Source: an uncultured Candidatus Saccharibacteria bacterium
GTDB taxonomy: Bacteria > Patescibacteriota > Minisyncoccia > UBA6257 > 2-01-FULL-56-20
Length of the DNA stretch: 33,634 bases
Assembly (NCBI GenBank): GCA_964577245.1
Contig: CAZNYI010000004.1
Coordinates: 1-33,634, forward strand
Reading direction: 5' to 3'
A program made the position numbers and the translations under genes. Positions 15,753 to 32,140 of this stretch are shown one piece after another. Within the stretch, counting starts at the first letter, position 1. Each line of letters opens with the position of its first letter. The notes beneath the pieces were generated by a model. That model was given only the letters and a program-made list of their open reading frames with translations, made no database searches and was not told the origin of the DNA.

Positions 15753-15775
15753 GCGAGTATGCGTACTGCGGCATC

Positions 15776-15816
15776 GCGCGGCGGTCGGGTTCACCCGGCC
15801 CCCGCGCTTTCTTTTT
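15776..15816 (+). terminator. rho-independent terminator
   Basis: A 14-bp GC-rich stem (15776-15789/15794-15807, one mismatch, loop TTCA) followed by TTTCTTTTT. Confidence 0.75.
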
Positions 15817-15855
15817 ATGATCTTTTAATGCTCGGCGTGGTATGCTCTCACGGTA

Positions 15856-15861
15856 TATAAT
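15856..15861 (+). promoter_or_regulatory. -10 box, leaderless start
   Basis: TATAAT (15856-15861), then 6 nt to ATG 15868. Confidence 0.45.
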
Positions 15862-15867
15862 TTTCAT

Positions 15868-16236
15868 ATGCCTATATTCGGAAGATCGCTCAAGCTTTCT
15901 TGGACGCATCACGCCCAGGCAAAGATGCAGTTCTATAGATTGTCGCCTATGCGGGTGCGGCGCGTGTTGAACGCGCCGAAACGTGTGGAAGAAGGCGTGG
16001 CGCCCAAAACGGTGGCGGTGATGCAACCGGCGGCGATCAAGGCGTCTGGCGGGCGCGCAGGCGCGCAGAAAGAAGAGCGGTGGACACAAGAGATCTGGGT
16101 GATGATCCAAGACGTAGGGAAGGAGCGCCGCGTGATCAGTGCGTGGCGCTACCCGGGCGTAACGAAGCCCAGGAGCACGGTGCTGTTGAATATCGCTCGC
16201 GGCGAATATGAAGAGTTTTTAGCCAAAGAACAGTAG
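15868..16236 (+). CDS. hypothetical protein, 122 aa
   Basis: The ORF has a consensus -10 box at leaderless distance. The composition is protein-like. The overlapping antisense ORF 15667-16110 is Arg/Pro-rich and is rejected. Confidence 0.65.
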   Translation: MPIFGRSLKLSWTHHAQAKMQFYRLSPMRVRRVLNAPKRVEEGVAPKTVAVMQPAAIKASGGRAGAQKEERWTQEIWVMIQDVGKERRVISAWRYPGVTKPRSTVLLNIARGEYEEFLAKEQ

Positions 16237-16244
16237 TATATATC

Positions 16245-16700
16245 ATGATCCTCATCAGTCCTTCATTTGATAACAATGGGGCGATCCCGAAAAAGTTCAC
16301 GTGCGACGGCGGGGGTATCAATCCGGAATTGCGGATAGAGAACGTGCCGGCGGAGGCGGAAGGCCTGGCGTTGGTGCTTCACGACCCCGACGCGCCAACG
16401 CCCGGTGGTTTTACGCACTGGGTACTGTGGAACATTCCACCGTCTACCACGCTTATCAAAGAAGAGAGCGTCCCGCCGCGCGCTATGGAGGGAAGAAACT
16501 CGGATGGGGTGGGGTATGCGGCTCCGTGCCCGCCGCCGGGGCATGGCGTGCATCATTACGAATTTTATCTCTATGCCCTTGATACCACCCTTGATCTTCC
16601 CGTGACCGCGGGCCGCGCGGAGCTCACGGACGCATTAAAGGGCCATGTGCTTGAGGTAGCGAAGCTGTCGGGCATGTATGAGCGAAAAAAAGAATTGTGA
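16245..16700 (+). CDS. YbhB/YbcL-family PEBP (Raf kinase inhibitor-like) protein
   Basis: Motifs 'FTCDGGGINPEL', 'LHDPDAP...GFTHWVLWNIP', 'GY.APCPPPGHGVHHYEFYLYALD'. Confidence 0.9.
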   Translation: MILISPSFDNNGAIPKKFTCDGGGINPELRIENVPAEAEGLALVLHDPDAPTPGGFTHWVLWNIPPSTTLIKEESVPPRAMEGRNSDGVGYAAPCPPPGHGVHHYEFYLYALDTTLDLPVTAGRAELTDALKGHVLEVAKLSGMYERKKEL

Positions 16701-16709
16701 TATACTTAA

Positions 16710-17306
16710 GTGGCTAAACTAATGGAACAAACTGATCTTGAAATAATTCAATCCGTGCTGCGCGGGGACAAAGAGGCCTTTGCCATGCTGGTGGACCGCC
16801 ATGCGGGCACGGTCTATAAATTCGCATACCGCTATGTGCGGAACGGCGATGACGCGCAGGATGTGTCGCAGGAAGCGTTTGTCCGCGCCTGGAAGAATAT
16901 AAAAAAATTCGACGAAACGAGGAATTTTAAAACGTGGCTTTTTGCGATCGCAAAGAATGCCGCGCTCGACCTTATTAAAAAGAAAAAGCCACTGCTCTTT
17001 TCGCAGATCGCCGAAGAGGACGACCAACTGGATACTTTTTTTGCTCCTTTTCTTGCCGCGCCCGAACTCCCTGACGCCATTTTTGCGCACAAGATGGAAA
17101 AGGCGGACATCGCTCGCTCGCTCGCCACGCTCCCGCCGAATTACCGGATGGTGCTTGCGATGCGGTATAACGACCATTTGAAGTTTCGGGAGATCGCGGA
17201 GACCCTTGGCGAACCTATCGATACCGTAAAAAGCAAGCATCGGAGGGGGCTTGCCCTGCTTCGGCGGATCGTTACGGGCGAGGGCCCCGACTCAAGTTTC
17301 GCCTAG
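16710..17306 (+). CDS. ECF-type RNA polymerase sigma-70 family factor
   Basis: Region 2 (DDAQDVSQEAFVRAWKNIKKFD...FKTWLFAIAKNAALD) and region 4 (LPPNYRMVLAMRYNDHLKFREIAETLGEPIDTVKSKHRRGL). The track start is GTG 16710. ATG 16722 (MEQTDLE...) is equally plausible. Confidence 0.9.
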   Translation: MAKLMEQTDLEIIQSVLRGDKEAFAMLVDRHAGTVYKFAYRYVRNGDDAQDVSQEAFVRAWKNIKKFDETRNFKTWLFAIAKNAALDLIKKKKPLLFSQIAEEDDQLDTFFAPFLAAPELPDAIFAHKMEKADIARSLATLPPNYRMVLAMRYNDHLKFREIAETLGEPIDTVKSKHRRGLALLRRIVTGEGPDSSFA

Positions 17307-17356
17307 CGGCGTGACGGGCGCGCACCTAAAAGCGCCGCCCCGTCGTATTCTTATTA

Positions 17357-17761
17357 ATGGAAGACGGCATTTTTAACGAAATCATTCCTGAGCCGCCGGC
17401 GGAGCTTGTGAAAAACATCCTGCTTCGCATTGAACGGGAAGAGCATCGTCGGCTCGCGATGAATACCGCGGCATTCGGCGCGGTACTTTTAGGATCGCTC
17501 GTGCTCGCGGGATACGGCTGGATGGCAGCGGCGGGCGAGGCGTCGCGCTCGGGACTTTTGTCGTTCATCTCGCTTTTCTTGTCGGACTTTTCGGTCGCCA
17601 CGGCGAACCTTTCCGACTTTATGCTTTCCGTCGTGGAATCATTCCCGGTGTTTCCTGTTGCGCTGTTTCTCTCGGGCATTTTCTTCGCCATCTGGTCCGC
17701 GGCCCGCTTTGTACGCGAGATAGTGCTTACGCGGACGCATGTTTTTTCGGCCTTTTCGTAG
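17357..17761 (+). CDS. membrane protein in the anti-sigma position (putative anti-sigma factor)
   Basis: It lies immediately downstream of the ECF sigma gene. It has a short cytoplasmic N-terminus followed by three TM helices. No zinc-binding anti-sigma motif was seen, so the call rests on position only. Confidence 0.5.
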   Translation: MEDGIFNEIIPEPPAELVKNILLRIEREEHRRLAMNTAAFGAVLLGSLVLAGYGWMAAAGEASRSGLLSFISLFLSDFSVATANLSDFMLSVVESFPVFPVALFLSGIFFAIWSAARFVREIVLTRTHVFSAFS

Positions 17762-17772
17762 ATTAAAAAAAT

Positions 17773-18243
17773 ATGAAAGACCTCTTGCATTCTTCACCTT
17801 TAAAAGCGATTCTTTGGATATTGGGAGCGATCATCGTCTTACTCCTCGTCTTCGGATTGGGCGTCACGATCGGCGCGCGTCGGACGGTGTTCACGGGGCG
17901 GTTCGAAGAAAATTATTATAGGAATTTTTACGGCGCGCCGGGAGGGCCGATGCCATTCAACCAACACGGGGTGGCCGGCGAGGTGATAGACGTTTCAAGC
18001 TCAACGATCTCTGTAAAAGATACCGATGGCGATGAACATTCGGTGGCGGTACTTTCGGATACCGCGATCCGCGAAGGAGGCGCCGCAATCATGATCGGCG
18101 GGGTCGTGCCGGGCGATATGATCACCGTGATCGGAGCGCCGAACTCGCAGGGGCAGGTTGAGGCACGATTCATCCGCGTGTTTGCCGCGTCGTCGTCATC
18201 GCCGCCGGTGTTGCCGCCGTTGCCGGGGACTAATATGAACTAA
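17773..18243 (+). CDS. membrane-anchored small beta-barrel protein (DUF5666-like), paralog 1
   Basis: N-terminal TM helix. The pattern 'GEVIDVSSSTISVKD.DG.EHSVAV...T.I......I....V.PGD.ITVIG......G.VEA.FIRV' is shared with 22176-22616. Confidence 0.7.
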   Translation: MKDLLHSSPLKAILWILGAIIVLLLVFGLGVTIGARRTVFTGRFEENYYRNFYGAPGGPMPFNQHGVAGEVIDVSSSTISVKDTDGDEHSVAVLSDTAIREGGAAIMIGGVVPGDMITVIGAPNSQGQVEARFIRVFAASSSSPPVLPPLPGTNMN

Positions 18244-18260
18244 CCAATCAATACAAAACT

Positions 18261-20075
18261 ATGTTTTCAAAAATAGGACACTGGATGCGAGCGCATAAGA
18301 TAATTACCATCATCATCGTTCTGGTTATCGCCGCGGGCGGCTATTATTGGTATACCTCGACGCATGCGACCACTACGGTCACTAAGTACGTTATCCAGAA
18401 CGCCACGCAGGGGACGGTGGTCTCGTCGGTGACGGGGAGTGGGCAGGTGCAGGCGGTCACTTCGATTGACCTCAAGCCGCAGATCTCCGAAAACGTGACG
18501 AGGGTATATGTAAAGGTGGGCGATCACGTGGCGGCCGGACAGACGCTGGTGCAGCTTGATACTACGAACGAGCAGAAGGCGGTGAATCAAGCGCAATTAT
18601 CGCTCCAGTCGGCGCAGCTTTCTCTTGCGCAGATGCAGCAGGTTTCGACCAGCACCCTGCTTCAGGACCAGAGTGCAGTGATCAAGGGCCAGCAGAGCGT
18701 GGTCGATGCCTCAACGACGCTCGTTACGGATTATCAGAGCGGGTTTGATACGCTCTCTTCCGTGTTTGTAAATTTACAGACCGTCATGACGGATGCGGGC
18801 AACTTCGTGGTCGGGACCAACGTCAACAAGTCCCAAGCGAATCCCGACGCATACGTGAGCATTATGCCGACCTACCTTCAGACGGGGACGCAGTCATATA
18901 GCACCCCCGTTGCGCCAAGCTATAATAGTGCCCTCGTGAGCTATCAGCAAACGCTTGCGGACTATCATGCTGCCAACCGGAATTCCGACCGGGTGGCGCT
19001 CGACGCACTTTTCGCGGAGACCTATCACACGACGCAACTGGTGAGCGCAAGTATGAAATCGATCAACGATCTTTTGAATTACGTCATAAATAATTATCCA
19101 AAGGATAGTCGACTTGCGCCGCTTCCTGCGATCACGACTACGTTCCAAACGACGTTCGGCAATGATATTACGACGGTCAACAATAATGTGACGAGCGTGC
19201 AGAATGCCATCACTGGCATCGCGAACGACAAAAACACGTTCCAAAATAACCAGCTTTCACTTGCTCAGGCAAGCGAAACACTTGCGGAACTCACGGCAGG
19301 TCCGACGCCGTTGAATGTGCTTTCCCAGCAGATCAGTATCCAAAGTGCGCAGAATTCGCTTGCGACGGCGGAGCAGAACCTCGCGTATGATTCCATCCGC
19401 GCGCCACTTGCGGGGGTGATCTCCGCGGTACCCGCGGTCGTGGGCACCACGGTGCCGTCGCCTGCGGTGAGCATGGTGACGCAAGGGGAGCTCGCGCAAG
19501 TGACCTTGAACGAGGTGGATGCCGCGAAAGTGATGATTGGCAACAAAGCAACGCTTACCTTCGACGCGCTGCCCGATCTTTCGCTCGCGGGCCAGGTGAC
19601 AGAGATAGATACGGTGGGTACGGTGAGCCAGGGCGTGGTGAACTACAACGTGCAAGTGGCATTTCAGGAAGCTTCGGGTGCGCCCCAGGTGAAACCCGGC
19701 ATGAGTGTGACGGCGAGCATCGTTACGGCGGCGCATCAAAACGTGATCGCGGTTCCGAATGCGGCGGTCACGACGCAGGGCGGTGCGAGCTATGTGCTTG
19801 AGCCGGCCGCACCGGTTCCTTCCTCAACGCTTGCGGCAAGTGCGAATGGCGGCGTCACGCTTTCCGCGACCACGCGCGTGCCGGTTGTGATCGGATTGGC
19901 AAACGATACGCTCACGGAAATAACGTCCGGCGTGAATGTGGGAGACCAGATCGTTACGCAGACAATAAAATCAACGGCAAGTGCGGCGTCTGCCGCATCC
20001 ACTGGCGCGGGCGGGTTACGCATCGGCGGCGGACTTTTTGGCGGTGGGGGAGGCGGCGGCACTACCGGACGATGA
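18261..20075 (+). CDS. efflux periplasmic adaptor (HlyD/MacA family) with long coiled-coil insert and Gly-rich tail
   Basis: N-terminal TM helix. Lipoyl-like 'VYVKVGDHVAAGQTLVQLD' and 'IRAPLAGVIS'. Beta-barrel 'VTEIDTVGTVSQGVVNYNVQVAF'. The stop overlaps the next start (ATGA at 20072). Confidence 0.85.
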   Translation: MFSKIGHWMRAHKIITIIIVLVIAAGGYYWYTSTHATTTVTKYVIQNATQGTVVSSVTGSGQVQAVTSIDLKPQISENVTRVYVKVGDHVAAGQTLVQLDTTNEQKAVNQAQLSLQSAQLSLAQMQQVSTSTLLQDQSAVIKGQQSVVDASTTLVTDYQSGFDTLSSVFVNLQTVMTDAGNFVVGTNVNKSQANPDAYVSIMPTYLQTGTQSYSTPVAPSYNSALVSYQQTLADYHAANRNSDRVALDALFAETYHTTQLVSASMKSINDLLNYVINNYPKDSRLAPLPAITTTFQTTFGNDITTVNNNVTSVQNAITGIANDKNTFQNNQLSLAQASETLAELTAGPTPLNVLSQQISIQSAQNSLATAEQNLAYDSIRAPLAGVISAVPAVVGTTVPSPAVSMVTQGELAQVTLNEVDAAKVMIGNKATLTFDALPDLSLAGQVTEIDTVGTVSQGVVNYNVQVAFQEASGAPQVKPGMSVTASIVTAAHQNVIAVPNAAVTTQGGASYVLEPAAPVPSSTLAASANGGVTLSATTRVPVVIGLANDTLTEITSGVNVGDQIVTQTIKSTASAASAASTGAGGLRIGGGLFGGGGGGGTTGR

Positions 20076-20800
20076 ACACTATTATTGAATGCAAAGACAT
20101 ACGGAAGGTCTATAACACCGGCGGCATAGAAACCGAAGTTTTGAAAGGAATCACGTTCTCAGTGAACGAGGGGGAGTTTGTGGCGATCATGGGGCCGTCC
20201 GGATCGGGCAAATCCACCCTTATGCATATTTTGGGTGCACTTGATACGCCGACGAGCGGCGAATATTTTTTGGACGGGAAGGACGTCTCCAAACTTTCCG
20301 ACGACGAACTTGCCGACATCCGGCGTGAGAAGATCGGCTTCGTGTTCCAGGCCTTCAATCTTTTGCCACGCACCACGGTAATGCGGAACGTTTCGTTGCC
20401 ACTCATCTATGAAGGCGTGAGTAAGGAGCGGCGCGAAGTGATCGCGGCGAAGGCATTGAATGACTCGGCGTTCCCTGAGCAATTCTGGCAGCATCATTCA
20501 AACCAGCTTTCGGGCGGCATGATGCAGCGCGTGGCGGTGGCGCGCTCGCTCGTGAACGATCCGGCGCTCATTTTGGCCGACGAGCCGACGGGCAATCTTG
20601 ATTCCAAAACCGGCGAGATGGTATTGCACACCTTCCAAACGCTCAATGCGCAACAGGGCAAAACCATTATTTTGATCACCCACGAAGAAGATATTGCGAA
20701 GCACACCGATCGGATCATCCACATCCGCGATGGGAATATTTTGAGCGACGAAAAGAATCAGCACAAGGTCGTCGCGCGGCATGAAAAAGAAATACCATAA
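20072..20800 (+). CDS. ABC transporter ATP-binding protein (MacB/LolD-type)
   Basis: Walker A GPSGSGKST, Q-loop FVFQ, signature LSGGMMQR, Walker B ILADEPTGNLD, H-loop ITHE. Confidence 0.95.
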   Translation: MNTIIECKDIRKVYNTGGIETEVLKGITFSVNEGEFVAIMGPSGSGKSTLMHILGALDTPTSGEYFLDGKDVSKLSDDELADIRREKIGFVFQAFNLLPRTTVMRNVSLPLIYEGVSKERREVIAAKALNDSAFPEQFWQHHSNQLSGGMMQRVAVARSLVNDPALILADEPTGNLDSKTGEMVLHTFQTLNAQQGKTIILITHEEDIAKHTDRIIHIRDGNILSDEKNQHKVVARHEKEIP

Positions 20801-20808
20801 TTTTCCCT

Positions 20809-22050
20809 ATGACCACAAGAGATCTTTTTGACGAAACCTATAGCGCGGTGACCGTAAACAAAGTGCGGTCGGGCCTTACCATGCTCGGCATTGTGATCGG
20901 CATTGCGTCCGTGATCGCCCTGCAGGCGATTGGCACGGGTGCGCAGAGTTCCATCCAATCCAGTATTCAATCCATAGGGTCCAACTTGTTGCTTGTGATG
21001 CCGGGAGCCACGCGCTCATTTGGCTCTACGGTGAGTGCGGGACGGGGGAGTGCGCAAACGCTTACGCCGGAAGATTCGGCCGCGATTGGCCAGCTTTCGG
21101 GGGTCGCTGCGGTCTCACCCAGTGTGACCGGCCGCTACCAGGTGCTGTATAAGGGCACGAACACTAACACGAGCGTGCTCGGCGTGGTTCCCGCATACAC
21201 GTCGGTGCGGAACATTCAAGTGGACCAAGGGGCGTTCATCACGGATGCGGATGTTTCCGCTTCGAACCGCGTGGCGGTGATCGGTCCTACCGTGTTGCAG
21301 GACCTTTTTGGCAATGCGAATGCTACGGCAACGCCGGACATGGCGATCGGGCAAACGATCCGCATCAAAAATATTGATTTCAAAGTGGCGGGCGTTACGG
21401 TGTCCAAGGGTGGGAGCGGGTTCAATAACCAAGACAACATGATCTATGTGCCGCTCGCGACAGCGCAACATTTTCTGGTGGGCAATGTTTCATACGTGAC
21501 CGAAATTGATATTGAAGCGACCGACCAGTCGGTTATGACGCAAGTACAGAACGATGTCACGAATTTGCTGCTTGCTCGTCATAATATTTCCGACCCGACC
21601 CTCGCTGATTTCAATGTGCTGAACCAGGCAGACATCGTGGCGGCCGCATCCTCGGTGACAGGCACGTTCACCACGCTCCTCGCCGCGATCGCGGGGATTT
21701 CACTCGTGGTCGGTGGCATCGGCATCATGAACATGATGCTCACCACGGTCACCGAGCGCACGCGTGAGATTGGTCTGCGCAAGGCGATCGGTGCCAAGCG
21801 CAAAGACATCACGCTTCAGTTCCTCGCCGAGTCGGTCATGCTCACTTTTACCGGCGGGGTTGCGGGAATTATTCTTGGATGGCTTATTGCCCTAGCGGTC
21901 ACTTACCTTACTTCCATCGCCACCAGTATCTCCGTAAGTTCCATCGTCCTTGCGTTTGGCGTATCTGCGGTCATCGGTATTATTTTCGGCTATTATCCCG
22001 CGCGTCGTGCGGCGGGATTAAGTCCCATAGAAGCGCTACGGTACGAATAA
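20809..22050 (+). CDS. ABC transporter permease (MacB periplasmic domain plus FtsX domain)
   Basis: Layout is N-terminal TM helix, large extracytoplasmic domain, then three C-terminal TM helices. It has 'ERTREIGLRKAIGAKRKDI' and ends '...YYPARRAAGLSPIEALRYE'. Confidence 0.9.
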   Translation: MTTRDLFDETYSAVTVNKVRSGLTMLGIVIGIASVIALQAIGTGAQSSIQSSIQSIGSNLLLVMPGATRSFGSTVSAGRGSAQTLTPEDSAAIGQLSGVAAVSPSVTGRYQVLYKGTNTNTSVLGVVPAYTSVRNIQVDQGAFITDADVSASNRVAVIGPTVLQDLFGNANATATPDMAIGQTIRIKNIDFKVAGVTVSKGGSGFNNQDNMIYVPLATAQHFLVGNVSYVTEIDIEATDQSVMTQVQNDVTNLLLARHNISDPTLADFNVLNQADIVAAASSVTGTFTTLLAAIAGISLVVGGIGIMNMMLTTVTERTREIGLRKAIGAKRKDITLQFLAESVMLTFTGGVAGIILGWLIALAVTYLTSIATSISVSSIVLAFGVSAVIGIIFGYYPARRAAGLSPIEALRYE

Positions 22051-22054
22051 CATG

Positions 22055-22139
22055 TACATACTCCCGCGCACAGTAATGTTTTTGCCTCGTGGCATAAGAA
22101 TGAATTCGGCAAAAACATTACTGTGCGCGGGAGTATGTA
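22055..22139. repeat. perfect 32-bp inverted repeat (IR-3), 21-nt loop
   Basis: 22055-22086 is the exact reverse complement of 22108-22139. The left arm starts 4 nt after the permease stop codon. No U tract follows. Confidence 0.85.
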
Positions 22140-22175
22140 AAAGGTCGTTTAAATAACAATCAATTCTTAAAAACG

Positions 22176-22616
22176 ATGAAAAAATATACGGTGCACATTG
22201 TTTGGTTAGTAGTGGCGATCGTTGCGTTCGTCGGTGGTATGTATTACGGAAAGGGAACGGCATCGCCAACCCTCGCTATGCGTACGGGTAATTTTGCGAG
22301 TTCTACGCGTGGAGGATTTGGCGGCGCCCGTGGCGGCGGATTCGTGACGGGCAGTATCCTTTCAAAAGACGCACAAAGCTTGACAGTGCAGCTTGCGAAT
22401 GGAAATTCCGAAGTGGTGTTCTATTCCAGTTCCACTTCGGTTATCAAGCCGATGCCCGCATCGGTTGGTGATCTCGCGGTCGGAACGAACGTGATAGTGG
22501 ATGGTGCGCAGAACCCTGATGGCAGCGTGACGGCGCAGACTATCCAGGTACGGCAACCCGGCACGCCGGGCGGCGGTGCAGGCGGGGGAGGAACGCTGGG
22601 TGGAGGCGCACAATAA
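22176..22616 (+). CDS. membrane-anchored small beta-barrel protein (DUF5666-like), paralog 2
   Basis: N-terminal TM helix. The pattern 'GSILSKDAQSLTVQLANGNSEVVFYSSSTSV......VGDLAVGTNVIVDGAQNPDGSVTAQTIQV' and a Gly-rich tail resemble 17773-18243. Confidence 0.7.
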   Translation: MKKYTVHIVWLVVAIVAFVGGMYYGKGTASPTLAMRTGNFASSTRGGFGGARGGGFVTGSILSKDAQSLTVQLANGNSEVVFYSSSTSVIKPMPASVGDLAVGTNVIVDGAQNPDGSVTAQTIQVRQPGTPGGGAGGGGTLGGGAQ

Positions 22617-22624
22617 AACGTGAG

Positions 22625-22656
22625 AAGCTCGGCTCTGTCTGCCGAGCTTTTTATTT
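22625..22656 (+). terminator. rho-independent terminator (overlaps the stop of the convergent gene)
   Basis: AAGCTCGGC (22625-22633) pairs with GCCGAGCTT (22641-22649), loop TCTGTCT, followed by TTTTATTTAT. Confidence 0.7.
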
Positions 22657-23202
22657 ATGCTCAGGTTTCCAAACGACAAGAAGCATTTCTATAAGAAGGA
22701 GGCCGGCAAGCGTTACTCCCCATGCGGCAAAAACCATCAGTTCGAGCCGCCATTCACGTATTTCCACTTCGCGAAGCGAGCGGCCGGCCATCACGAATCC
22801 CGGCTGCGGGCCTGGTATGCGCACAACGACGATCGCCTGGCGCACACCGGGTTCCGGTTGCCACGTGACGCGGGTTTCCCCCGCGGCGCGGACGTAATCA
22901 AAAATGCCGGGCGGGAGCAGGGGAGCGAGTCCGTGCAAAAAACCGTTGCCGCCCGAAGGGACACCCGCGTCGCTATAAAAAACAAGATAGGGCGATAAGC
23001 TTTGTTCGATATTGATTGTTCCCGTGGCATTGCCCGAAATGGCTGCGGCGGCATCTTCCGCCATCTGGATCTGTGGATCGTTCGCCGACTGGCGATACGA
23101 CTGCTGCACGGCACCATACACGAGACCGCACAACATCGTCGCGACGAACGCGAGCGGCAGCCAACGTTTAAAGATAATAATTGAAGCATTCATAACTATC
23201 AT
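22651..23202 (-). CDS. hypothetical two-TM membrane protein
   Basis: TM helices lie near both termini (WLPLAFVATMLCGLVYG and MVFAAWGVTLAGLLLIEMLLVV). ATG 23193 (MNASIII...) is an alternative start, with TACAAT 7 nt upstream. Confidence 0.7.
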   Translation of the reverse strand: MIVMNASIIIFKRWLPLAFVATMLCGLVYGAVQQSYRQSANDPQIQMAEDAAAAISGNATGTINIEQSLSPYLVFYSDAGVPSGGNGFLHGLAPLLPPGIFDYVRAAGETRVTWQPEPGVRQAIVVVRIPGPQPGFVMAGRSLREVEIREWRLELMVFAAWGVTLAGLLLIEMLLVVWKPEHK

Positions 23203-23252
23203 TGTAATTTACGGGACACCATATTACAATACTTAAGTACTCTAACTATCAT
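23193..23252. promoter_or_regulatory. divergent control region with dyads (candidate MarR operator)
   Basis: ATTGTAAT (23201-23208) and ATTACAAT (23223-23230) form an inverted repeat. TACTTAAGTA (23230-23239) is a perfect 10-bp palindrome. TAACTATCAT is a direct repeat at 23193-23202 and 23243-23252. Confidence 0.35.
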
Positions 23253-23261
23253 CACTACTTC

Positions 23262-23672
23262 ATGAAGACATCTTCCGATCGCGTGAAGATCATTTCCCTG
23301 CTTTTCAACATCGGCCGTCGGATGCGGGACGAGAAAAGCAAATATTCCATGTTGCATTTTCAAACCCTGCGCTACGTGCAGGAAGAAGGGCGTCCACTGA
23401 TGCATGGGGTAGCCGCTTTTCTTCGTGTGACGCCACCGGCAGCCACCTTGCTTATCGACGGTCTTGCGAAAGACGGGCTGCTGATACGGTCGTTAGACAA
23501 AAAGGACCGCCGGACGGTGCGGGTATCGCTCACGCCCCGGGGTAAGAAGTTTATCGGACAGTGCATTCTGAAGAAAATGAGCAAGCTTAAGAAAACGTTT
23601 GGGGTGCTCACCCCTAAAGAGCGCAGCGCACTCGTCGCTTTACTTGAGAAGGTTTCAAAACAGAACCGCTAA
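23262..23672 (+). CDS. MarR-family transcriptional regulator
   Basis: Winged-helix pattern 'LRYVQEEGRPLMHGVAAFLRVTPPAATLLIDGLAKDGLLIRSLDKKDRRTVRVSLTPRGKKF'. Confidence 0.9.
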   Translation: MKTSSDRVKIISLLFNIGRRMRDEKSKYSMLHFQTLRYVQEEGRPLMHGVAAFLRVTPPAATLLIDGLAKDGLLIRSLDKKDRRTVRVSLTPRGKKFIGQCILKKMSKLKKTFGVLTPKERSALVALLEKVSKQNR

Positions 23673-23674
23673 GC

Positions 23675-24841
23675 ATGGCTATTGTCCTTATCGTGAGCGT
23701 GCTTGTGCTACAGATACTTCTCGTTTTTACGCACCTTACGCTCTATGTGGTCGTGGCAATGGTGTTCGGCATTGGCGGGACGGTGTTAAAAACGATATTC
23801 ATCATTTTGGCGTTTTTGTTCCTCTCCGCATCGCTCCTGGCGCACCAATACCGATGGAAGTGGCTTGATTGGTATTACACCGTCGCCGCGTATTGGTTCG
23901 GCCTGTCAAGCTTCCTTTTTATCGGTGCGCTCGCGTTCTATTTCGCGAGTGATGTACTCTATGCTTTCAATATATATGTCCCTCCGGCGCCCTTCGCCGG
24001 CGTTCTTTTCGCTCTGGCGTTCCTTCTTCATCTTTATGGGACATGGCAGAGTTCCCGCGCGCAGATAACCCCCGTTACGGTTACGATACCAGAATTGCCT
24101 GCGGCGTGGCATGGGAAAAAGATCGCGTTTGTGAGCGATCTTCATCTTGGAAAGGTGTGGCGTGAGGGATTTGCAGCGAAAGTGGCGGGGAAGATTATGG
24201 CGCTTGCGCCCGACGCGATCTTGATCGGCGGAGATCTTTTTGATGGCATGACGTGCGATGTTCGGAAGATGGTTGAGCCATTGCGAGCACTGCGTGCCCC
24301 GCGCGGCGTATTCTTTGTCACTGGCAATCATGAATATTTTTTGCCTGACGTCACGGCCGCGCTCACGGCACTCCGCGCCGTAGGCATTCGCATATTGGAC
24401 GATGAACGGGTGGATATTGGCGGCCTATCGCTCATTGGCGTGAACGACAAGAGCGACAAGGGTCCGCACCGCGACGATCATTTCAAAAAAGTACTCGGCC
24501 TCAAGCGGCCAGAAATATTGGACCATGAAGAGGCGCATTTTGAAAAGAGGCTGAATGGCGCAGGCACCCGTGACGGCCAGCCGATCATCCTTTTGAAGCA
24601 CGAACCGGATCATCTTGAGATCGCGAGCGAAGCCGGCGTCTCGCTCGGTCTGTTTGGGCACACGCATCACGGCCAGATTTTCCCCCTTAATTATTTCACC
24701 TGGAAGATCTACCACGGTTTTGACCATGGTCTGCACCGCATGGGCGACATGCAGGTCTATACCTCAAGCGGTGTAGGTACGTGGGGGCCACCCCTGCGCC
24801 TCGGCACGAAATCGGAGATTGTGCTTATTACGCTCCATTAA
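23675..24841 (+). CDS. membrane-anchored metallophosphoesterase (calcineurin-like)
   Basis: About 4 N-terminal TM helices, then the motifs FVSDLHLG, GGDLFDG, GNHEY and GHTHHG. It starts 2 nt after the marR stop. Confidence 0.9.
   Translation: MAIVLIVSVLVLQILLVFTHLTLYVVVAMVFGIGGTVLKTIFIILAFLFLSASLLAHQYRWKWLDWYYTVAAYWFGLSSFLFIGALAFYFASDVLYAFNIYVPPAPFAGVLFALAFLLHLYGTWQSSRAQITPVTVTIPELPAAWHGKKIAFVSDLHLGKVWREGFAAKVAGKIMALAPDAILIGGDLFDGMTCDVRKMVEPLRALRAPRGVFFVTGNHEYFLPDVTAALTALRAVGIRILDDERVDIGGLSLIGVNDKSDKGPHRDDHFKKVLGLKRPEILDHEEAHFEKRLNGAGTRDGQPIILLKHEPDHLEIASEAGVSLGLFGHTHHGQIFPLNYFTWKIYHGFDHGLHRMGDMQVYTSSGVGTWGPPLRLGTKSEIVLITLH
24269..24841 (+). repeat. 573-bp direct repeat, copy A (3' part of the intact phosphoesterase gene)
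   Basis: Aligns without indels to 30760-31332 at an offset of 6491. I counted about 81 mismatches by hand (about 86% identity). It contains an 89-bp identical tract, 24386-24474 = 30877-30965. Confidence 0.9.
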
Positions 24842-24848
24842 TCATTTT

Positions 24849-24857
24849 TGCTATACT
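24849..24857 (+). promoter_or_regulatory. extended -10 promoter, leaderless start of giant gene
   Basis: TGcTATACT (24849-24857), then 6 nt to ATG 24864. It begins 8 nt after the phosphoesterase stop. Confidence 0.6.
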
Positions 24858-24863
24858 AACTTT

Positions 24864-27800
24864 ATGAGAATGATGCGCCAATTTGCGTTCATAGTTCTTT
24901 TTTGTGTGACGCTCGGTTACGGCGTCATACCTTCCGTTTCTTTCGCATCAGCGCCGTGGTATAACGCGAGTTGGCCGTACCGCACCCAAATAACTATTGA
25001 CCATACGAAGGTTGCTTCATCAACCGGCGCCGAGTCCTACACCAATTTCCCTCTCCTCGTAAACGTAACAAGCACGAATTTAAGATTTGCGAGCAGCAGC
25101 GGTTACGTTGGCAATACGGACGGCTCCGATATCGTTTTTACGGCGGCCGACGGTACGACCAAGCTCAATCATGAGATAGAAAAATATTCCTCAAGCACGG
25201 GTAACTTGGTGGCGTGGGTGCAGATGCCGAACATTTCGACTTCCAGCGACACGAATCTCTATCTTTATTATGGGAATGTTGGGGCCGCGAACCAGCAGAA
25301 TGTGACGGGCACGTGGGATCCGACGTATAAGGCGGTGTGGCATTTCGCCGACGCCTCGGGAAATTTTAAGGACTCAACGGCTAACGGCAATACCGGAGTC
25401 GCTGCTACTACTACCCATTTGGTAGTGGGGCAAATCGACGGAGCAGCGGGTTTTGATGGGGCCACCTCAAGTGTGATCGCCGCCGATAATGCCGGGTTGC
25501 GGCCTACGGCGCAAATGACCGCCTCCATTTGGGCCAACCAATCTTCGTTGGCGGTCACTAAGATGCTGATTGATAAATATGGCTCTCTCCAGGCGTGCTG
25601 GACCATACGTGTCGATTCTACGAGCACTACGCGGCTGGTAAGCTACATCGCTACCAGCAGCAACGACGCGTCCAATTTTGCGCAGACTCCTGTTGGTTCT
25701 TGGTCAACGGGGTGGCATTATGTGGTCCTTCGTTACTATGGGGCAGGGGCGGCCGCTTCAGATAGGCAACAGGTTTATATTGACGGGGTGAACCAAGCTC
25801 TTACGTTTACCGGGATCGTACCGGCTGCATTGCTTACTACCACGGGTCCACTTGCGGTGGGATGGCAAACTGGGTTGAGCCGGGATTTTAACGGCACTCT
25901 TGACGAAGTCCGCTTTTCGAATATCGCCCATTCCGCCGACTGGATAGCGACTGAATATAATAACCAGGCGACCACTTCACTGCTTGCGTATAATACGCAG
26001 GAGAATTATCAAACGTCGCCCACTGTTCAATTTTCCCAAGCGACCACCACCATAGGGGAGACCTCCTCGTCCATCGCTATCGTCCTCGCACTCTCTGCCA
26101 CTTCCACGGCCACTTCCACGGCCACTTTTTCCATTGCGGGAAACGCCACTTCCGGCATTGACTATACGCTCTCTTCAACGACGGTTACCGTCTTGCCCGG
26201 AGCGACGACTTCAAGTGTCACGTTCACGCCGCTCAGTGATGGCGTCTATGGCCCTACGAAAACGTTGACCCTCACTCTCACGACCACTACGAACGCGACG
26301 ATCGGCGTCCAAGCTACTTCTACCGTCACGATACTTGAGGGAGGCGCCCCTCCCGTGCTCCAATTCGCCGCCACCTCCTCGTCGGGCGCCGCTGCTACCA
26401 CTACCGTTCCCGTCACGGTTGTTCTGGCCCCGACTTCCTCCATCCCTGCGGCTGCGAACTATGCCGTGACCGGCGGCACGGCAGTAAATGGCGCTGATTT
26501 CTCTCTTGCTTCCGGCACTGCGACTGTGGCCGCCGGCGCCACTTCCACCAGTTTCAACCTGCAGGTCAATAACGTGGCTTCCACCTCCGCACGTACCATC
26601 GTGATCACGCTTTCTGCGCCGGCCTCTTCAACGCTCGGGGCGAACACGACGTATACCTACACGATTGCGGCTTCAACTGATGCCATCCCGCCCGCCGTTG
26701 CATGGGTCGCTCCCGCTCAAAACGTCACGGTTTCCGGAACGGTCACGCTCACTGCTTCTTCTACGGACAACGTCAATGTTGCAAGCGTTGCTTTCTATCG
26801 TGGCAGCTTTGGAGGCGCGTTCGCCTCAAGCACGCTCATCGGGTCCAGTTCCGCTCCGAGCGGCACGCTTTTCTCGATACCCTGGAGCACCACCTCTACG
26901 ACGAACGGCTCCACTACGCTCTGGGCCCTCGCAACCGATACCTCGAACAATACTTCCACTGCCACCACCACGGTGAACGTGGAAAATCCGCCGGTGATCA
27001 CGAGTCCCGCAGTGGCTGTCGGTGCAACATCCACTGCCACCGTTAGTTGGACGACCAATGCGAACGCAAATTCCGTCGTGAACTACGGCCTCACCGCGGC
27101 CTATGGTTCTTCAACCACGAGCCCAACCCTCACCACCACTCACGCCATGCTCCTTACCAGCCTTGCGGTATCGAGCACGTATCACTATCAGATCAGCTCG
27201 ACTGATGGGCAGGGCAACGCCGCTACCACCACGGACGCGACTTTCAATACAAATCCGTCATTACCTGTTGCAAATGCGGGACAAGATCAGGCGCTGACGC
27301 TTCCTGCGCACACGATCACTTTAACCGGTTCGGCAACGGATGCCGGCGGGACTATCTCTTCGTATGCGTGGAGCGAGATCGATTTGCTTGGCGCGACCAT
27401 ACTTTCGCCGAGTAGTGCATCAACGACCGTGACCGATCTTGCCGTTGGAACCTATACCTTCCGTTTATTGGTAACTGACAGCAATAATGTAACCAGCACC
27501 GACGACATGTCTACGGTCATGACAAGCCCGAGCTATGTGGTCGGTGCCCCCGCAAAGAAAATCGTTATTCTCGGGTCTTCAACGGCCGCCGGAACCGGCG
27601 CAAGCCCGGTCAGTGATTCATGGGTCAATCTTTATGCGGCATATTTACAAACACTGAACGCAAGTAATGTCGTCGTTAATTTGGCAGTGGGCGGATATAC
27701 CACCTACCAGGAATTACCAACAGGTACGTTGCCGCCAAACGGGCGGCCAAATCCTGACACTTCGCATAACATTACGGCAGCGATTGCGCAGAATCCAAAT

Positions 27801-30716
27801 GCGATCATCGTCAGTCTTCCCACGAACGATACGGCGGATGGTTACACGCTTGCCGAAACGGAGGCGAATTTCGCCACTATCGCTGCGGCTGCGGCTGCGG
27901 CTCATATTCCAATATGGGTTTCAACTTCGCAACCGAGAAACTTAGGCACCACGGGACAAAATGGTTTGATAACCTTGCGGGATTGGATCAATACTACCTA
28001 TGGCAGGCATGCGCTCGATTTTTGGACTACGGTTGCAAATTCCGACGGTTCTATTAATACGCCATACGGTTATGGCGACGGCATCCACTTAAATAACGCT
28101 GGCCACCAGAAGCTTTATAACCGGGTGGTTGATAGCGGATTAATAGAGGAGCTTGACGATACTCAGGTGCCGAGCGTTTCCATCATCGCTCCCGCGCCCG
28201 GTGCCATGGTGCAAGGGACGGCGGTCACGGTGTCCGCGAGCGCGACCGATAATTATGCGATGGGGTCGGTGCAATTCATATTGGATGGCAGCAATTTAGG
28301 GTCGGCAATCACTGCCACGTCTTCTCCGAATACCTATAGTTACTCATGGAATACCGTTACGGCTTCCAATGCCACCCACACCTTGACGGCCATAGCGACG
28401 GACGTGTCGGGCAACGCTACCACTTCTCCCGGGATTGTCATTACGGTGAATAACACATTGCCCGTGCTCCAATTCGCCGCCACCTCCTCGTCGGGCGCCG
28501 CTGCTACCACTACCGTTCCCGTCACGGTTGTTCTGGCCCCGACTTCCTCCATCCCTGCGGCTGCGAACTATGCCGTGACCGGCGGCACGGCAGTAAATGG
28601 CGCTGATTTCTCTCTTGCTTCCGGCACTGCGACTGTGGCCGCCGGCGCCACTTCCACCAGTTTCAACCTGCAGGTCAATAACGTGGCTTCCACCTCCGCA
28701 CGTACCATCGTGATCACGCTTTCTGCGCCGGCCTCTTCAACGCTCGGGGCGAACACGACGTATACCTACACGATCTTACTGACCGCCACCACTTCCACTG
28801 CGCCGCAGAGCTTTGCGGCTGCGCCCGGCAACGCGCAAGCCGCCCTCACCTGGCTGGCGCCCTCTTCTAATGGCGGCTCAAATGTCACCGGGTATCTAGT
28901 AAGTGACAAACTCTCTGCCTCTTCCACCTATGCCCAAGCGACGACGACGGGTGCCACTGCTACTTCTGCGGTCATAACCGGTCTCACGAACGGCGCAAGC
29001 TATGACTTTCAGATTGTTGCGCAGAACAGTGTAGGCACTTCGAGCCCCGCAACGGCAACCAACGTCGTGCCGTTCACCGTGCCCAATGCACCCGTAATCG
29101 GCACGGCGATTGCGGGCAATGCCCAAGCAACTGTTACGTTTACGCCTGGTTTCAACGGAGGATCACAAGTGCTGTATTATACTGCGGCGGCAAATACCGG
29201 CGGAGTATTCGCCACGAGCACCGGGAGCAGTTCGATCACTGTGTCCGGTCTCACGAACAATCAGGCCTATAGCTTTACGGTGACCGCGACGAATGCTGCG
29301 GGCACTTCCGCTTCGTCTTCGCCATCCAATACCGTGACGCCCTTGGCCGCCATTCCCCAGATCTTGGGCGTCACTTCTTCTACGGCGTCCACTACCGCGG
29401 TGATTGCTTGGACCACCGATCTTCCCGCCGATGCTACGGTGAACTACGGCTTGACTGCGGGTTATGGTTCGTCTACTACCAATTCCGTCGCGACCACGTC
29501 CCATAGCATATTCCTTTCCGGTCTTGCTCCGCTTACGACCTATCACTTCAAAGTTTTGAGTTCCAATGGCACGGTGGCGTCATCGTCCGACGCTCTTTTT
29601 ACCACTCTCTCTGCCGGCGCGCCCACGGCGAGCAATGTGACAACGACCGGCATCACGGCGGTTGGCCAGATGCTGACCGGGCATTATACCTTTTTCGATC
29701 CGAATAATTATTCCGAGGGCGCTTCCACGTATCGGTGGCTTTCGGCAACTTCTACGGGCGGCACCTATGTACCGATCGGCGGGGCGGTGAATGCAACCCG
29801 CACATTGGTCGCTGCCGATGCCGGTACCTATCTGGAATTTGAAGCGACGCCGGTTTCTACGGCCACAGCCGGCGCGCCAGTGCGGAGCGGTCCAACGGCG
29901 CAGATCCAGGGGACAACCACCATACCGAATTTCTTATCGATCGCCGCTTCTTCCGTGACCGATGCTGCGGCCACGATCACTTGGACCACGGATATTGCTG
30001 CTTCCTCGTTCGTGAATTACGGCATGACCGTTGCGTATGGCGCGTCGACCGCCGAAGTCGATACTGCCCCACGCGTCTTGTCTCATGGCGTGGCATTGTC
30101 TGGGCTTTCCGCGTGCACTGCGTATCATGTCCAAGCCGAATCCACCGGATATGTTGGGAATACGGGGACAAGCACCGACATTGCCTTCACGACGACTGGC
30201 TGTATCGCGCCCACCCCCACGTCTACCTCTGGTAGCGGGGAAATTTCCGTCGGTGTTGCCGCGAGCTATGCGCCGTCCGGGTTCACGCCGGGTGCGCCCA
30301 CCCCCGTTGCCGTTACCCTCGCCCCCTCCACGACCGGCACCGGCACGGCCACATCCCCAACCAATGCTTCTTTGCTGGCTCAACTCCTATCGCTCTATCA
30401 ATCCTTGCAATCGTTAGAGCGGACTGCTGGTCTTACGATCACGCCGGCTCCGGCGGAGCTCAGCAGCTTTTCAACTTATATTTTTTCCCGCAATCTCTCG
30501 TTACGTGACGCCGGCGCCGACGTTCAAGAGCTCCAGAAATTTTTGATTGCCCACGCGGCTGGTCCCGCCGCACAAAAACTCAAGGTGCACGGCACAACGA
30601 CCGTTTTTGGCGCGCTCACGTATAACGCCCTGGTTGAATTTCAAAAATATGCCGGCATCACGCCGGCCTCGGGGTACTTTGGCGCGAAGACGCGCGCGTG
30701 GGCGAACGCACAATAG
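24864..30716 (+). CDS. giant multidomain cell-surface protein (about 1950 aa) with embedded SGNH/GDSL hydrolase and C-terminal PG_binding_1
   Basis: ATG 24864 gives the signal peptide MRMMRQFAFIVLFCVTLGYGVIPSVSFA. The track start 24819 is TTG inside the upstream gene. Modules: DUF2341-like N-terminus (WPYRTQITIDHTKV), LamG-like (LDEVRFSN), Calx-beta-like (GIDYTL, GADFSLASGTATV), Ig-like, three Fn3-like 'VNYG.T..YG' modules and PKD-like (ANAGQDQ). SGNH blocks are GSSTAAG, GGYTT, PTNDT and DGIHLN. A PG-binding tail closes the protein. Confidence 0.9.
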   Translation: MRMMRQFAFIVLFCVTLGYGVIPSVSFASAPWYNASWPYRTQITIDHTKVASSTGAESYTNFPLLVNVTSTNLRFASSSGYVGNTDGSDIVFTAADGTTKLNHEIEKYSSSTGNLVAWVQMPNISTSSDTNLYLYYGNVGAANQQNVTGTWDPTYKAVWHFADASGNFKDSTANGNTGVAATTTHLVVGQIDGAAGFDGATSSVIAADNAGLRPTAQMTASIWANQSSLAVTKMLIDKYGSLQACWTIRVDSTSTTRLVSYIATSSNDASNFAQTPVGSWSTGWHYVVLRYYGAGAAASDRQQVYIDGVNQALTFTGIVPAALLTTTGPLAVGWQTGLSRDFNGTLDEVRFSNIAHSADWIATEYNNQATTSLLAYNTQENYQTSPTVQFSQATTTIGETSSSIAIVLALSATSTATSTATFSIAGNATSGIDYTLSSTTVTVLPGATTSSVTFTPLSDGVYGPTKTLTLTLTTTTNATIGVQATSTVTILEGGAPPVLQFAATSSSGAAATTTVPVTVVLAPTSSIPAAANYAVTGGTAVNGADFSLASGTATVAAGATSTSFNLQVNNVASTSARTIVITLSAPASSTLGANTTYTYTIAASTDAIPPAVAWVAPAQNVTVSGTVTLTASSTDNVNVASVAFYRGSFGGAFASSTLIGSSSAPSGTLFSIPWSTTSTTNGSTTLWALATDTSNNTSTATTTVNVENPPVITSPAVAVGATSTATVSWTTNANANSVVNYGLTAAYGSSTTSPTLTTTHAMLLTSLAVSSTYHYQISSTDGQGNAATTTDATFNTNPSLPVANAGQDQALTLPAHTITLTGSATDAGGTISSYAWSEIDLLGATILSPSSASTTVTDLAVGTYTFRLLVTDSNNVTSTDDMSTVMTSPSYVVGAPAKKIVILGSSTAAGTGASPVSDSWVNLYAAYLQTLNASNVVVNLAVGGYTTYQELPTGTLPPNGRPNPDTSHNITAAIAQNPNAIIVSLPTNDTADGYTLAETEANFATIAAAAAAAHIPIWVSTSQPRNLGTTGQNGLITLRDWINTTYGRHALDFWTTVANSDGSINTPYGYGDGIHLNNAGHQKLYNRVVDSGLIEELDDTQVPSVSIIAPAPGAMVQGTAVTVSASATDNYAMGSVQFILDGSNLGSAITATSSPNTYSYSWNTVTASNATHTLTAIATDVSGNATTSPGIVITVNNTLPVLQFAATSSSGAAATTTVPVTVVLAPTSSIPAAANYAVTGGTAVNGADFSLASGTATVAAGATSTSFNLQVNNVASTSARTIVITLSAPASSTLGANTTYTYTILLTATTSTAPQSFAAAPGNAQAALTWLAPSSNGGSNVTGYLVSDKLSASSTYAQATTTGATATSAVITGLTNGASYDFQIVAQNSVGTSSPATATNVVPFTVPNAPVIGTAIAGNAQATVTFTPGFNGGSQVLYYTAAANTGGVFATSTGSSSITVSGLTNNQAYSFTVTATNAAGTSASSSPSNTVTPLAAIPQILGVTSSTASTTAVIAWTTDLPADATVNYGLTAGYGSSTTNSVATTSHSIFLSGLAPLTTYHFKVLSSNGTVASSSDALFTTLSAGAPTASNVTTTGITAVGQMLTGHYTFFDPNNYSEGASTYRWLSATSTGGTYVPIGGAVNATRTLVAADAGTYLEFEATPVSTATAGAPVRSGPTAQIQGTTTIPNFLSIAASSVTDAAATITWTTDIAASSFVNYGMTVAYGASTAEVDTAPRVLSHGVALSGLSACTAYHVQAESTGYVGNTGTSTDIAFTTTGCIAPTPTSTSGSGEISVGVAASYAPSGFTPGAPTPVAVTLAPSTTGTGTATSPTNASLLAQLLSLYQSLQSLERTAGLTITPAPAELSSFSTYIFSRNLSLRDAGADVQELQKFLIAHAAGPAAQKLKVHGTTTVFGALTYNALVEFQKYAGITPASGYFGAKTRAWANAQ
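26352..26665 (+). repeat. 314-bp perfect direct repeat, copy 1 (inside giant gene)
   Basis: Base-for-base identical to 28461-28774 by visual comparison. The offset is 2109 nt (703 codons), so it is in frame. It encodes PVLQFAATSSS...TYTYTI, a Calx-beta-like module. Confidence 0.95.
28461..28774 (+). repeat. 314-bp perfect direct repeat, copy 2 (inside giant gene)
   Basis: Identical to 26352-26665. The flanking bases differ on both sides (t/g before, t/c after). Confidence 0.95.
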
Positions 30717-30759
30717 AGAGTATCCTCAATGCTCGCCGAGACCTCTTGGGGCCCGGCCA

Positions 30760-31332
30760 ATGGTTGAGCCGTTGCGTGCGCTCCATGCTCCGCGCGGCGT
30801 ATTCTTTGTCACTGGCAATCACGAATATTTTTTGCCGGATATGGTGCCCGCCCTTGCGGCTCTTCGTGCGGCGGGTATTCGCATATTGGACGATGAACGG
30901 GTGGATATTGGCGGCCTATCGCTCATTGGCGTGAACGACAAGAGCGACAAGGGTCCGCACCGCGAAGATCATTTCAAAAAGGTGCTTGGTCTCAAGCGTC
31001 CGGAAGTATTGGATCATGAAGAAGATCATTTTGAAAAACGGCTGAACGGCACGGGGACCAATCACGGTCAACCGGTCATTCTTTTGAAGCACGAGCCGGA
31101 TCATCTTGAGATTGCGAGCGAGGCCGGCGTTTCGCTTGGTCTGTTTGGCCACACGCACCACGGCCAGATCTATCCGCTGAATTATTTCACCTGGAAGATC
31201 TATCACGGTTTTGACCATGGCTTGCACCGTATGGGCACCATGCAGGTCTATACCTCAAGCGGCGTTGGCACGTGGGGCCCGCCGCTGCGCCTCGGCACGA
31301 AATCGGAGATTGTATTGATCACGTTGCAGTAG
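30760..31332 (+). pseudogene. orphan 3' fragment of a metallophosphoesterase gene (direct repeat copy B)
   Basis: It encodes 190 aa, of which 174 are identical to the C-terminal 190 aa of 23675-24841. It lacks the TM region and the DxH and GD metal motifs. The 71 N-terminal residues of track ORF 30547-31332 are an out-of-frame read of the giant gene's 3' end. Confidence 0.65.
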
Positions 31333-31335
31333 CTT

Positions 31336-31408
31336 TCCGCATACACAAAAGAGCTTTTGAAAGCAGCTTGAGATTTACTGCTTTCAAAAGCTCTTTTGTG
31401 TATGCGGA
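31336..31408. repeat. perfect 31-bp inverted repeat (IR-4), 11-nt loop
   Basis: 31336-31366 is the exact reverse complement of 31378-31408. It begins 4 nt after the TAG of the phosphoesterase fragment. No U tract follows. Confidence 0.85.
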
Positions 31409-31497
31409 CAACCGCGCGTGATTGATACGATTTTACTTTTTTCCAAAATGGTGTATAACAGTGCTAGCTCGCCAAACCTTGGGAGCGGGAGGTTTCT

Positions 31498-32019
31498 GTG
31501 TCGTTTGCGCTGTATCTGACGAGCGTTTTCACTATTGCCCTGCCTCTTGCGCTCTTTGAGATTTGGTTGGAGCGCTTCAAGACGGGGTGGGGAGGGAATT
31601 TCACGAGCGAGTTCTGGGGACGCAAGATCCAGTTCGGATTGGCAAAAAAGCTACTCGGGAGCGGTGTGGAGCTGGGAACGCGGTATCACATTCTGATGTT
31701 CCCGGTCGTTGTCCCAACGCTCTTCTTCCTCTGCGCTCGCTTCCTCGGCCGGCACGTGGCGCACGCGCCCGTGTTCTGGCCACTCTTTGTTATTGCGGGC
31801 ATGTTGGGGATCATGGTGGCGGAGGACGCTCTGTGGTTCGTCCTCAATACCACCTTTCGCCTGCGATTCCCCGACGCACTCCAGCGCCTCCTTCGCGGAG
31901 ACGTTTCATGGCACCCGCGTTGGATTCGGTTGGGGTCCGTGAAACTTCCGGACTTTTACGTCTGGATGCCGGTGCTCGTAACGGCGCTGCTCTATCTGCA
32001 GGCGCAGATCGCCAAATGA
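31498..32019 (+). CDS. hypothetical polytopic membrane protein, 173 aa
   Basis: GTG start with GGGAGG (31485-31490) 7 nt upstream. Four or five hydrophobic helices. The overlapping frame 31563-32114 is Arg/Ala-rich and is rejected. Confidence 0.7.
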   Translation: MSFALYLTSVFTIALPLALFEIWLERFKTGWGGNFTSEFWGRKIQFGLAKKLLGSGVELGTRYHILMFPVVVPTLFFLCARFLGRHVAHAPVFWPLFVIAGMLGIMVAEDALWFVLNTTFRLRFPDALQRLLRGDVSWHPRWIRLGSVKLPDFYVWMPVLVTALLYLQAQIAK

Positions 32020-32140
32020 TCAATCATCGGTCCCGTGCGGGAAGCAATCCATTTGCTTTGTCCGCTCGGGACCTTTTTCATATGCTTTGGTGCACGGGTC
32101 TGGACGATCTTTGAATGATTGTATAATACCAACCTCAAAA

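Follow-up and report, generated by a model that had tools for sequence, protein, structure and literature searches.

Displacement of the 3′ end of a gene, with the old end left behind as a remnant, has been described for several bacterial systems. In Escherichia coli K-12, the prophage e14 lies in the 3′ part of the housekeeping-type gene icd, to which it supplies a replacement end that keeps the gene intact, and the original end persists on the far side of the insert as the C-terminal pseudogene icdC (Hill et al. 1989, as described in PMC13626634). The two ends differ mainly at synonymous sites, and loss of the insert gives a chimeric functional gene. [quoted passage not shown] In this process, homology anchors the incoming DNA in the conserved 5′ part of the gene, the other end is joined illegitimately, and the 3′ end of the resident gene is shifted downstream, where it remains as a start-less orphan, all without an integrase. 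In the E. coli long-term evolution experiment, deletion between the diverged direct paralogous repeats cpsG and manB gave rise to chimeric genes (PMC13626634). We analyzed a locus that shares features with all three systems in an uncultured Candidatus Saccharibacteria bacterium (assembly GCA_964577245.1), in which a large surface-protein gene is enclosed between the 3′ end of an intact metallophosphoesterase gene and a second, orphaned copy of that end. The stretch under study, hereafter the window, is the entire contig CAZNYI010000004.1 with a length of 33,634 bp. We give about an even chance to the reading that the locus arose by 3′-end displacement, as a recombination scar that unites two diverged alleles. 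Scars of this general kind are already known; the locus adds an example from a little-studied group and does not amount to a new system.

The intact gene encodes a membrane-anchored, calcineurin-like metallophosphoesterase of 388 aa (23675-24841, + strand), which gives a full-length match to PF00149 (profile positions 2-190, 47.4 bits against a gathering cut-off of 21.5) and weak YaeI/LpxG-like matches below the cut-off. The best-named homologues come from Paceibacterota/Minisyncoccia metagenome-assembled genomes. The 3′ end of this gene is duplicated as direct repeats around the insert, and it is the upstream copy that completes the gene. This copy A (24269-24841, +) comprises codons 199-388 together with the stop codon; copy B (30760-31332, +), at an offset of 6491, is an orphaned 3′ half of the gene. 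Over 573 aligned nucleotides the copies differ by 81 mismatches without any indel (85.9% identity), 60 of the 81 differences fall in third codon positions, and the encoded sequences differ at 16 amino acids. Homology sets in at the ATG of codon 199, upstream of which only a 3-nt chance match is found, and it ends at the stop codons TAA and TAG, past which there is no similarity. The alignment agrees with the initial annotation, which had described an indel-free 573-bp repeat with about 81 nucleotide differences and 16 amino-acid changes that ends at both stops. The same annotation had stated that copy B lacks the N-terminal half of the enzyme and is followed by a 31-bp hairpin; both statements hold (for the hairpin, see below). 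Copy B covers only positions 57-190 of the 191 positions of the PF00149 profile and is therefore devoid of the first two metal-binding motifs (I and II). Its frame is intact, with no stop codon and no indel. Neither a Shine-Dalgarno sequence nor a leaderless promoter motif was found upstream of it.

The whole interval between the two copies is occupied by a single open reading frame (ORF) for a surface protein of 1950 aa (24864-30716, +), whose ATG begins 22 bases past the stop of copy A. Its reading frame and domain order are continuous, and Pfam assigns a signal/transmembrane segment, DUF2341, Calx-beta, Big_7, PKD, a GDSL hydrolase, FN3 and a C-terminal PG_binding_1 domain. Behind the gene, a spacer of 43 nt (30717-30759) without Shine-Dalgarno sequence, promoter motif or terminal repeat leads to the non-homologous junction J2 (30759/30760), at which we found no shared sequence of at least 9 nt, no inverted repeats and no target duplication. 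According to Pfam, no ORF of the window, including the large gene, encodes an integrase or transposase. The insert as a whole likewise has neither terminal repeats nor a target duplication, and it gave no match to phages or plasmids. Insertion of a transposon or insertion sequence was rejected on these grounds, with terminal inverted repeats, target-site duplication and transposase all missing. The locus displays two marks of 3′-end displacement: an orphaned 3′ fragment without 5′ part and expression signals, and one non-homologous junction in the absence of transposon ends.

Six nucleotides before the ATG of the large gene lies the extended -10-like motif TGCTATACT (24849-24857, +). A motif of the TGCTATACT type occurs with the same spacing ahead of four other genes of the window (6646, 12095 and 33193 on the + strand; 33127 on the - strand). 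The motif ahead of the large gene may represent a leaderless-type promoter; a generic sigma-70 scan called no promoter there. The suggestion that the large gene has its own promoter is hence backed by the recurring motif but not by the scan. More generally, extended -10-like motifs of the form TGnTAnAnT stand 6-7 nt before the ATG of several genes without Shine-Dalgarno sequence, namely the large gene and the four just listed, which suggests that leaderless transcripts may be frequent in this organism. In an exhaustive search of representative sequences, all relatives of the large protein had at most about 42% identity, its own cluster representative excepted. One candidate homologue, P0367, listed at ‘91%’, was discarded, as it is the window’s own protein called from the fourth codon. 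When the N-terminal 429 aa served as the query, no listed protein was longer than 751 aa; hits in this search seem to be limited to about 1.75 times the length of the query, which would make large orthologues invisible to it.

The hairpin gives the two ends a polarity. Three nucleotides past the stop of copy B lies a perfect hairpin with 31-nt arms (31336-31408). In related genomes (L003/L004, L005 and L006/L007) a hairpin of about 30 bp is found within a few bases of the phosphoesterase stop, in the same position as the one behind copy B, which makes the latter its positional homologue. An alignment of the hairpins from four lineages gave a consensus fold of 31 pairs, and 18 of the 31 show compensatory double changes. 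There is no trace of a hairpin after copy A, and a search of Rfam with the hairpin matched no known RNA family. The hairpin is a conserved element, which probably acts as a terminator. Because the relatives carry this covarying hairpin after the stop codon and only copy B has it in the window, copy B can be assigned the ancestral-type 3′ end. A second perfect hairpin (22055-22139), with 32-nt arms and a 21-nt loop, directly follows the gene for an FtsX-type permease, and very long perfect hairpins seem to be the usual gene-end element of this lineage.

We compared the locus with five related loci, whose phosphoesterases share 82% (L003/L004), 69% (L006/L007) and 65% (L008) protein identity with that of the window or, in the case of L005, are encoded by a frameshifted gene. 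Synteny on the left-hand side reaches up to the phosphoesterase gene in all of them, including the upstream gene for a MarR-family regulator (23262-23672, +; Pfam MarR), the stop of which abuts the phosphoesterase start; MarR and phosphoesterase form a conserved pair (L003-L008). In none of the five does a large gene follow the phosphoesterase, and all five have a single copy at the locus. What lies past the hairpin varies among the relatives: most continue with a convergent DsbB gene, with a TIG-domain gene (L003) or a NUDIX gene (L005) as extras specific to the lineage. The right flank of the window, which starts with a gene for a 173-aa membrane protein (p173; 31498-32019, +) and further encodes p323 and a PG-binding protein, has no counterpart in the relatives, nor does their DsbB gene have one in the window. 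In L005 (2500-3714), the phosphoesterase is split over three reading frames, due either to long-read indel errors or to genuine pseudogenization. This gene is the source of P0113 (218 aa), which was dropped as a candidate second truncated copy, as L005 shows a full gene broken by frameshifts. In L006, a different protein of 1083 aa with a PG-binding-like segment (1014-4265) is encoded by an insertion that separates the sigma-factor gene from the conserved gene next to it, so that large surface-protein genes occupy different sites in related genomes.

Both copies carry the signature of purifying selection, as the initial annotation had claimed and as dN/dS now bears out. By the method of Nei and Gojobori (NG86), dS between A and B is 0.65 and dN is 0.052, giving an omega of 0.08. 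When the differences were polarized with four outgroups, 27 synonymous and 10 non-synonymous changes fell on the A branch and 22 and 8 on the B branch, which corresponds to an omega of about 0.11 for each. Non-synonymous sites outnumber synonymous ones by about 3.3 to 1, so that under neutrality copy B would show about 72 non-synonymous changes, compared to the 8 observed. Because of this deficit and the lack of any indel or stop, copy B evolved within a working gene for nearly its whole separate history and was truncated only recently. The same values (omega of about 0.11, no indel, no stop) reject an origin by tandem or segmental duplication in place, after which the surplus copy decayed. 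Outside a tract of identity described below, dS between the copies rises to 0.88. This falls within the range of 0.8-1.2 obtained on seven flanking genes when the window is set against L003, and it matches the divergence of this genome from its nearest sampled relative. On this scale, the two ends are as diverged as two species. Neighbour joining groups A and B as sisters at 100% bootstrap support (97% with the tract excluded), a grouping that, given the sparse sampling, does not separate xenologues from old paralogues. The earlier idea that the ends diverged in different lineages is one of two possibilities, as A and B, though not recent, are sisters and may also be old paralogues. Clustering of both copies as recent in-genome paralogues had been named beforehand as an outcome that would speak against this idea; the copies do cluster as sisters, but they are not recent.

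The tract of identity spans 95 nt at 24386-24480 in copy A and 30877-30971 in copy B (both +). Given 80 differences in 570 nt, a run of this length has a probability of about 2e-5, and L003 differs from copy A at 14 positions across it. The tract is the only long identical stretch and lies inside the repeat (offset 117-211), the edges of which are diverged. It is best read as the putative product of gene conversion, or of a crossover between A and B that left its heteroduplex here. At this length, it suffices as a substrate for RecA-type recombination and would be the best substrate for a deletion. A mosaic test of A- versus B-derived changes on either side of the tract revealed no asymmetry, and GC content at third codon positions (GC3) and codon composition did not separate A and B into a native and an incoming copy.

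Taken together, a 3′-end displacement in two steps may explain the locus best. Two alleles of the phosphoesterase 3′ half would have diverged while each was part of a working gene. The B allele would have kept the ancestral layout of a stop codon followed by the terminator hairpin. The A allele would stem from an arrangement that arose in one lineage, in which the large surface-protein gene with its leaderless-type promoter took the place of the hairpin after the phosphoesterase. Later, DNA of the A type and of the ancestral type would have been joined in a single event, most simply by HFIR. Such a join requires that homologous sequences be exchanged within the 5′ part of the gene or upstream of it, and that the spacer at 30759 be joined without homology to codon 199 of the other allele at 30760. 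The phosphoesterase would thereby have stayed intact through copy A, copy B would be a recent and probably untranslated remnant, the ancestral hairpin would now terminate a longer unit, and the 95-nt tract would be a conversion or crossover patch between the copies. Either copy A with the large gene or copy B with the right flank may have come in, as the left flank is syntenic with the relatives, the right flank is not and the compositions are alike. The proposal of the initial annotation that copy B is the original 3′ end and copy A plus the large gene an inserted unit is accordingly supported in its first part by the ancestral-type end of B, whereas for its second part the reverse direction may hold as well.

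With icd/e14/icdC, the locus would have in common an insert in the 3′ part of a housekeeping-type gene, a replacement end borne by the insert, an original end that persists on the far side as a C-terminal remnant, differences that are mainly synonymous and an insert whose loss would give a chimeric functional gene. It differs in that e14, as a prophage, brings along a site-specific recombination system, whereas here the insert is a single surface-protein gene without a recombinase and the repeat is diverged over its full length. With the Rhs/CDI and T6SS cases, it would share anchoring by homology in the conserved 5′ part, illegitimate joining of the other end and a start-less orphan downstream, again without an integrase. 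In those systems, however, displacement affects variable toxin tips, which come with immunity genes and are kept for their function, while here both ends encode nearly the same half of an enzyme and the cargo is an unrelated surface-protein gene past the stop codon.

Several points weigh against this reading. Homologous exchange at about 83-86% identity is inefficient. The right flank matches no relative, so that copy B cannot be demonstrated to be in its native place. Neither an empty site (a full-length B-type gene followed by the hairpin) nor a donor (an A-type gene with the large gene) is present in the collections searched. Specifically, neither the full phosphoesterase nor copy B, when used as a protein query, retrieved anything closer than 82% protein identity, and an exact cluster look-up showed that the 90% cluster holds A and B alone. 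Neither a degenerate DNA pattern for the A/B clade, run on metagenome contigs of the Joint Genome Institute (JGI), nor p173-anchored scans of genomes and metagenomes revealed an empty site or donor, and distant p173 homologues have no phosphoesterase nearby. The empty-site junction, for which the initial annotation had proposed a look in metagenomic reads or related genomes, was hence not found in the genomes and metagenome contigs searched. Also, the sister position of A and B is compatible with old in-genome paralogy, and the physical linkage of A to B comes from a single contig that crosses an exact repeat of 314 nt.

This last point raises the question of an assembly artefact, by which the contig would fuse DNA of two strains or of two loci, with the 314-nt repeat as one possible bridge, and A and B would not lie on one molecule. 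The repeat encodes a Calx-beta-like module and occurs twice within the large gene (26352-26665 and 28461-28774, both +), the copies being 2109 nt apart. In a second assembly (ENA sample ERZ27245402), one MEGAHIT contig (L001) equals window positions 13751-26450 with 1 single-nucleotide polymorphism (SNP) and contains MarR, the intact phosphoesterase including copy A and the 5′ portion of the large gene. Another (L002) equals positions 26547-32391 with 3 SNPs and runs from the 3′ portion of the large gene across the non-homologous junction into copy B and on through the hairpin to the gene after it. Both junction regions are thus found again, with 4 SNPs relative to the window, and an orphan B adjoining the end of the large gene is present in two separate assemblies. 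The two contigs do not overlap, since both stop inside the first copy of the 314-nt repeat, and the complete large protein is recorded from a single source and a single contig. For these reasons, the A-B link is that of the window contig, and so is the copy number of the Calx-beta-like module, as the independent contigs break in the first copy. Strain variation is seen on the right side, where 3 of the 4 SNPs between the window and the ENA contigs cluster just right of copy B (31398, 31752 and 31782), one of them in a hairpin arm, and where a JGI variant of p173, carried on a 5761-bp contig, shows six clustered amino-acid changes at residues of about 106-121. An artefact could accommodate the single source, the broken contigs and this variation, but J2 lies in unique sequence and recurs in L002, so that an orphan B beside the large gene exists regardless. 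Moreover, an order X-R-Y-R-Z (R being the repeat) is the sole single path that uses every observed contig edge, reading frame and domain order are continuous, and the longest exact run between A and B, 95 nt, is shorter than the k of 141 indicated by the names of the ENA contigs (k141_...). We therefore consider an artefact improbable.

Among the biological alternatives, two full-length phosphoesterases could have flanked the large gene as old in-genome paralogues, long kept by selection, until a recent deletion removed the 5′ half of the second copy together with intervening DNA. The sister grouping at 97-100% bootstrap and the equal purifying selection on both branches would fit this scenario, as would the 95-nt patch, since conversion tracts of this kind are typical of linked paralogues. 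Yet it needs three events (duplication, loss of the hairpin after A, and deletion) and, within a small genome, near-redundant direct repeats that persist for long at a distance of 6.5 kb; the locus has a single copy in all five sampled relatives, and just one conversion patch is seen over a dS of about 0.9; we rate it as rather unlikely. The matching layout of icd-e14-icdC (PMC13626634) could also point to an integrase-mediated element of that kind, which targeted the phosphoesterase 3′ half and whose recombinase was since lost or acts from elsewhere. This is hard to reconcile with an insert filled by one ORF, with no recombinase domain in insert or window and no phage or plasmid similarity, and with a 573-nt repeat that is diverged throughout and has its sole identical stretch inside and not at the edge, where an att core would be expected. 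We deem such an element quite improbable. Finally, copy B might have arisen by in-place duplication and have been kept as a functional 190-aa protein that starts at the ATG of the homology onset, given its intact frame, the position of this ATG exactly at the repeat boundary and the purifying selection on its branch. However, metal-binding motifs I and II are missing, other genes of the window possess the Shine-Dalgarno or leaderless motif that B lacks, and no stand-alone homologue of its length was found apart from frameshifted or truncated gene calls, all of which makes a functional B most improbable.

Irrespective of its origin, the geometry of the locus implies that the direct repeats could delete the large gene precisely, as the initial annotation had anticipated. 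Recombination of A with B would remove 6491 bp and leave a hybrid gene with all 388 codons intact, directly ahead of the ancestral hairpin. In this regard, the cpsG/manB deletion predicts the fate of the locus, one hybrid gene and loss of the interval, with the difference that it was an observed laboratory event and the deletion here follows from geometry. A far-reaching and, in our estimate, improbable extension would be that the phosphoesterase 3′ half and the large gene together form an integrase-free cassette. This cassette could leave as a 6491-bp circle via the diverged repeats and re-enter any related genome where its phosphoesterase 3′ half finds a homologous partner for a single crossover, which would recreate the layout, with the 95-nt tract as the crossover scar.

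The remainder of the window is ordinary chromosomal DNA of an ultra-small bacterium of the Candidate Phyla Radiation (CPR) type, with genes for UvrA, UvrC, CinA, Sua5, a sigma factor and a MacAB-like ABC system preceding the MarR-phosphoesterase pair. A second pair of diverged direct repeats (127-402 and 3623-3899; about 280 nt, 75-87% identical) brackets three genes, encoding a 339-aa ORF, an M23 peptidase with PG_binding_1 and YdjM. Each of these repeats combines a promoter-like TTGAC...TGCTATCAT with a hairpin rich in GC and with an element resembling a tRNA, for which Rfam gives a tRNA match at 315-388 (32 bits) and ARAGORN calls nothing. Between the DUF5666 gene and MarR, an ORF of 183 aa without family match (22651-23202, -) is missing from all five related loci, which makes it another small lineage-specific insertion. 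In the right flank, a membrane-anchored ORF of 323 aa without family match (32141-33112, -) has a GC content of 44%, compared to about 56% in its neighbours, and was possibly acquired recently. Two more genes of low GC content lie at 3062-3616 and 6662-8341.

The ways in which the uncultured CPR/Paceibacterota-type bacteria exchange fast-evolving surface proteins are poorly documented. On its own, the locus is a single anecdote from one contig, and its importance depends on whether the layout recurs or both states are found in population reads. Nevertheless, it represents a clean and datable footprint of a large surface-protein gene placed between a conserved gene and its terminator without any mobile-element machinery. 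The event is recent, because the displaced gene end is still intact, and the site could revert through simple recombination. If the cassette outlined above does exist, it would provide a route by which CPR lineages swap host-attachment proteins by means of the host recombination machinery alone.

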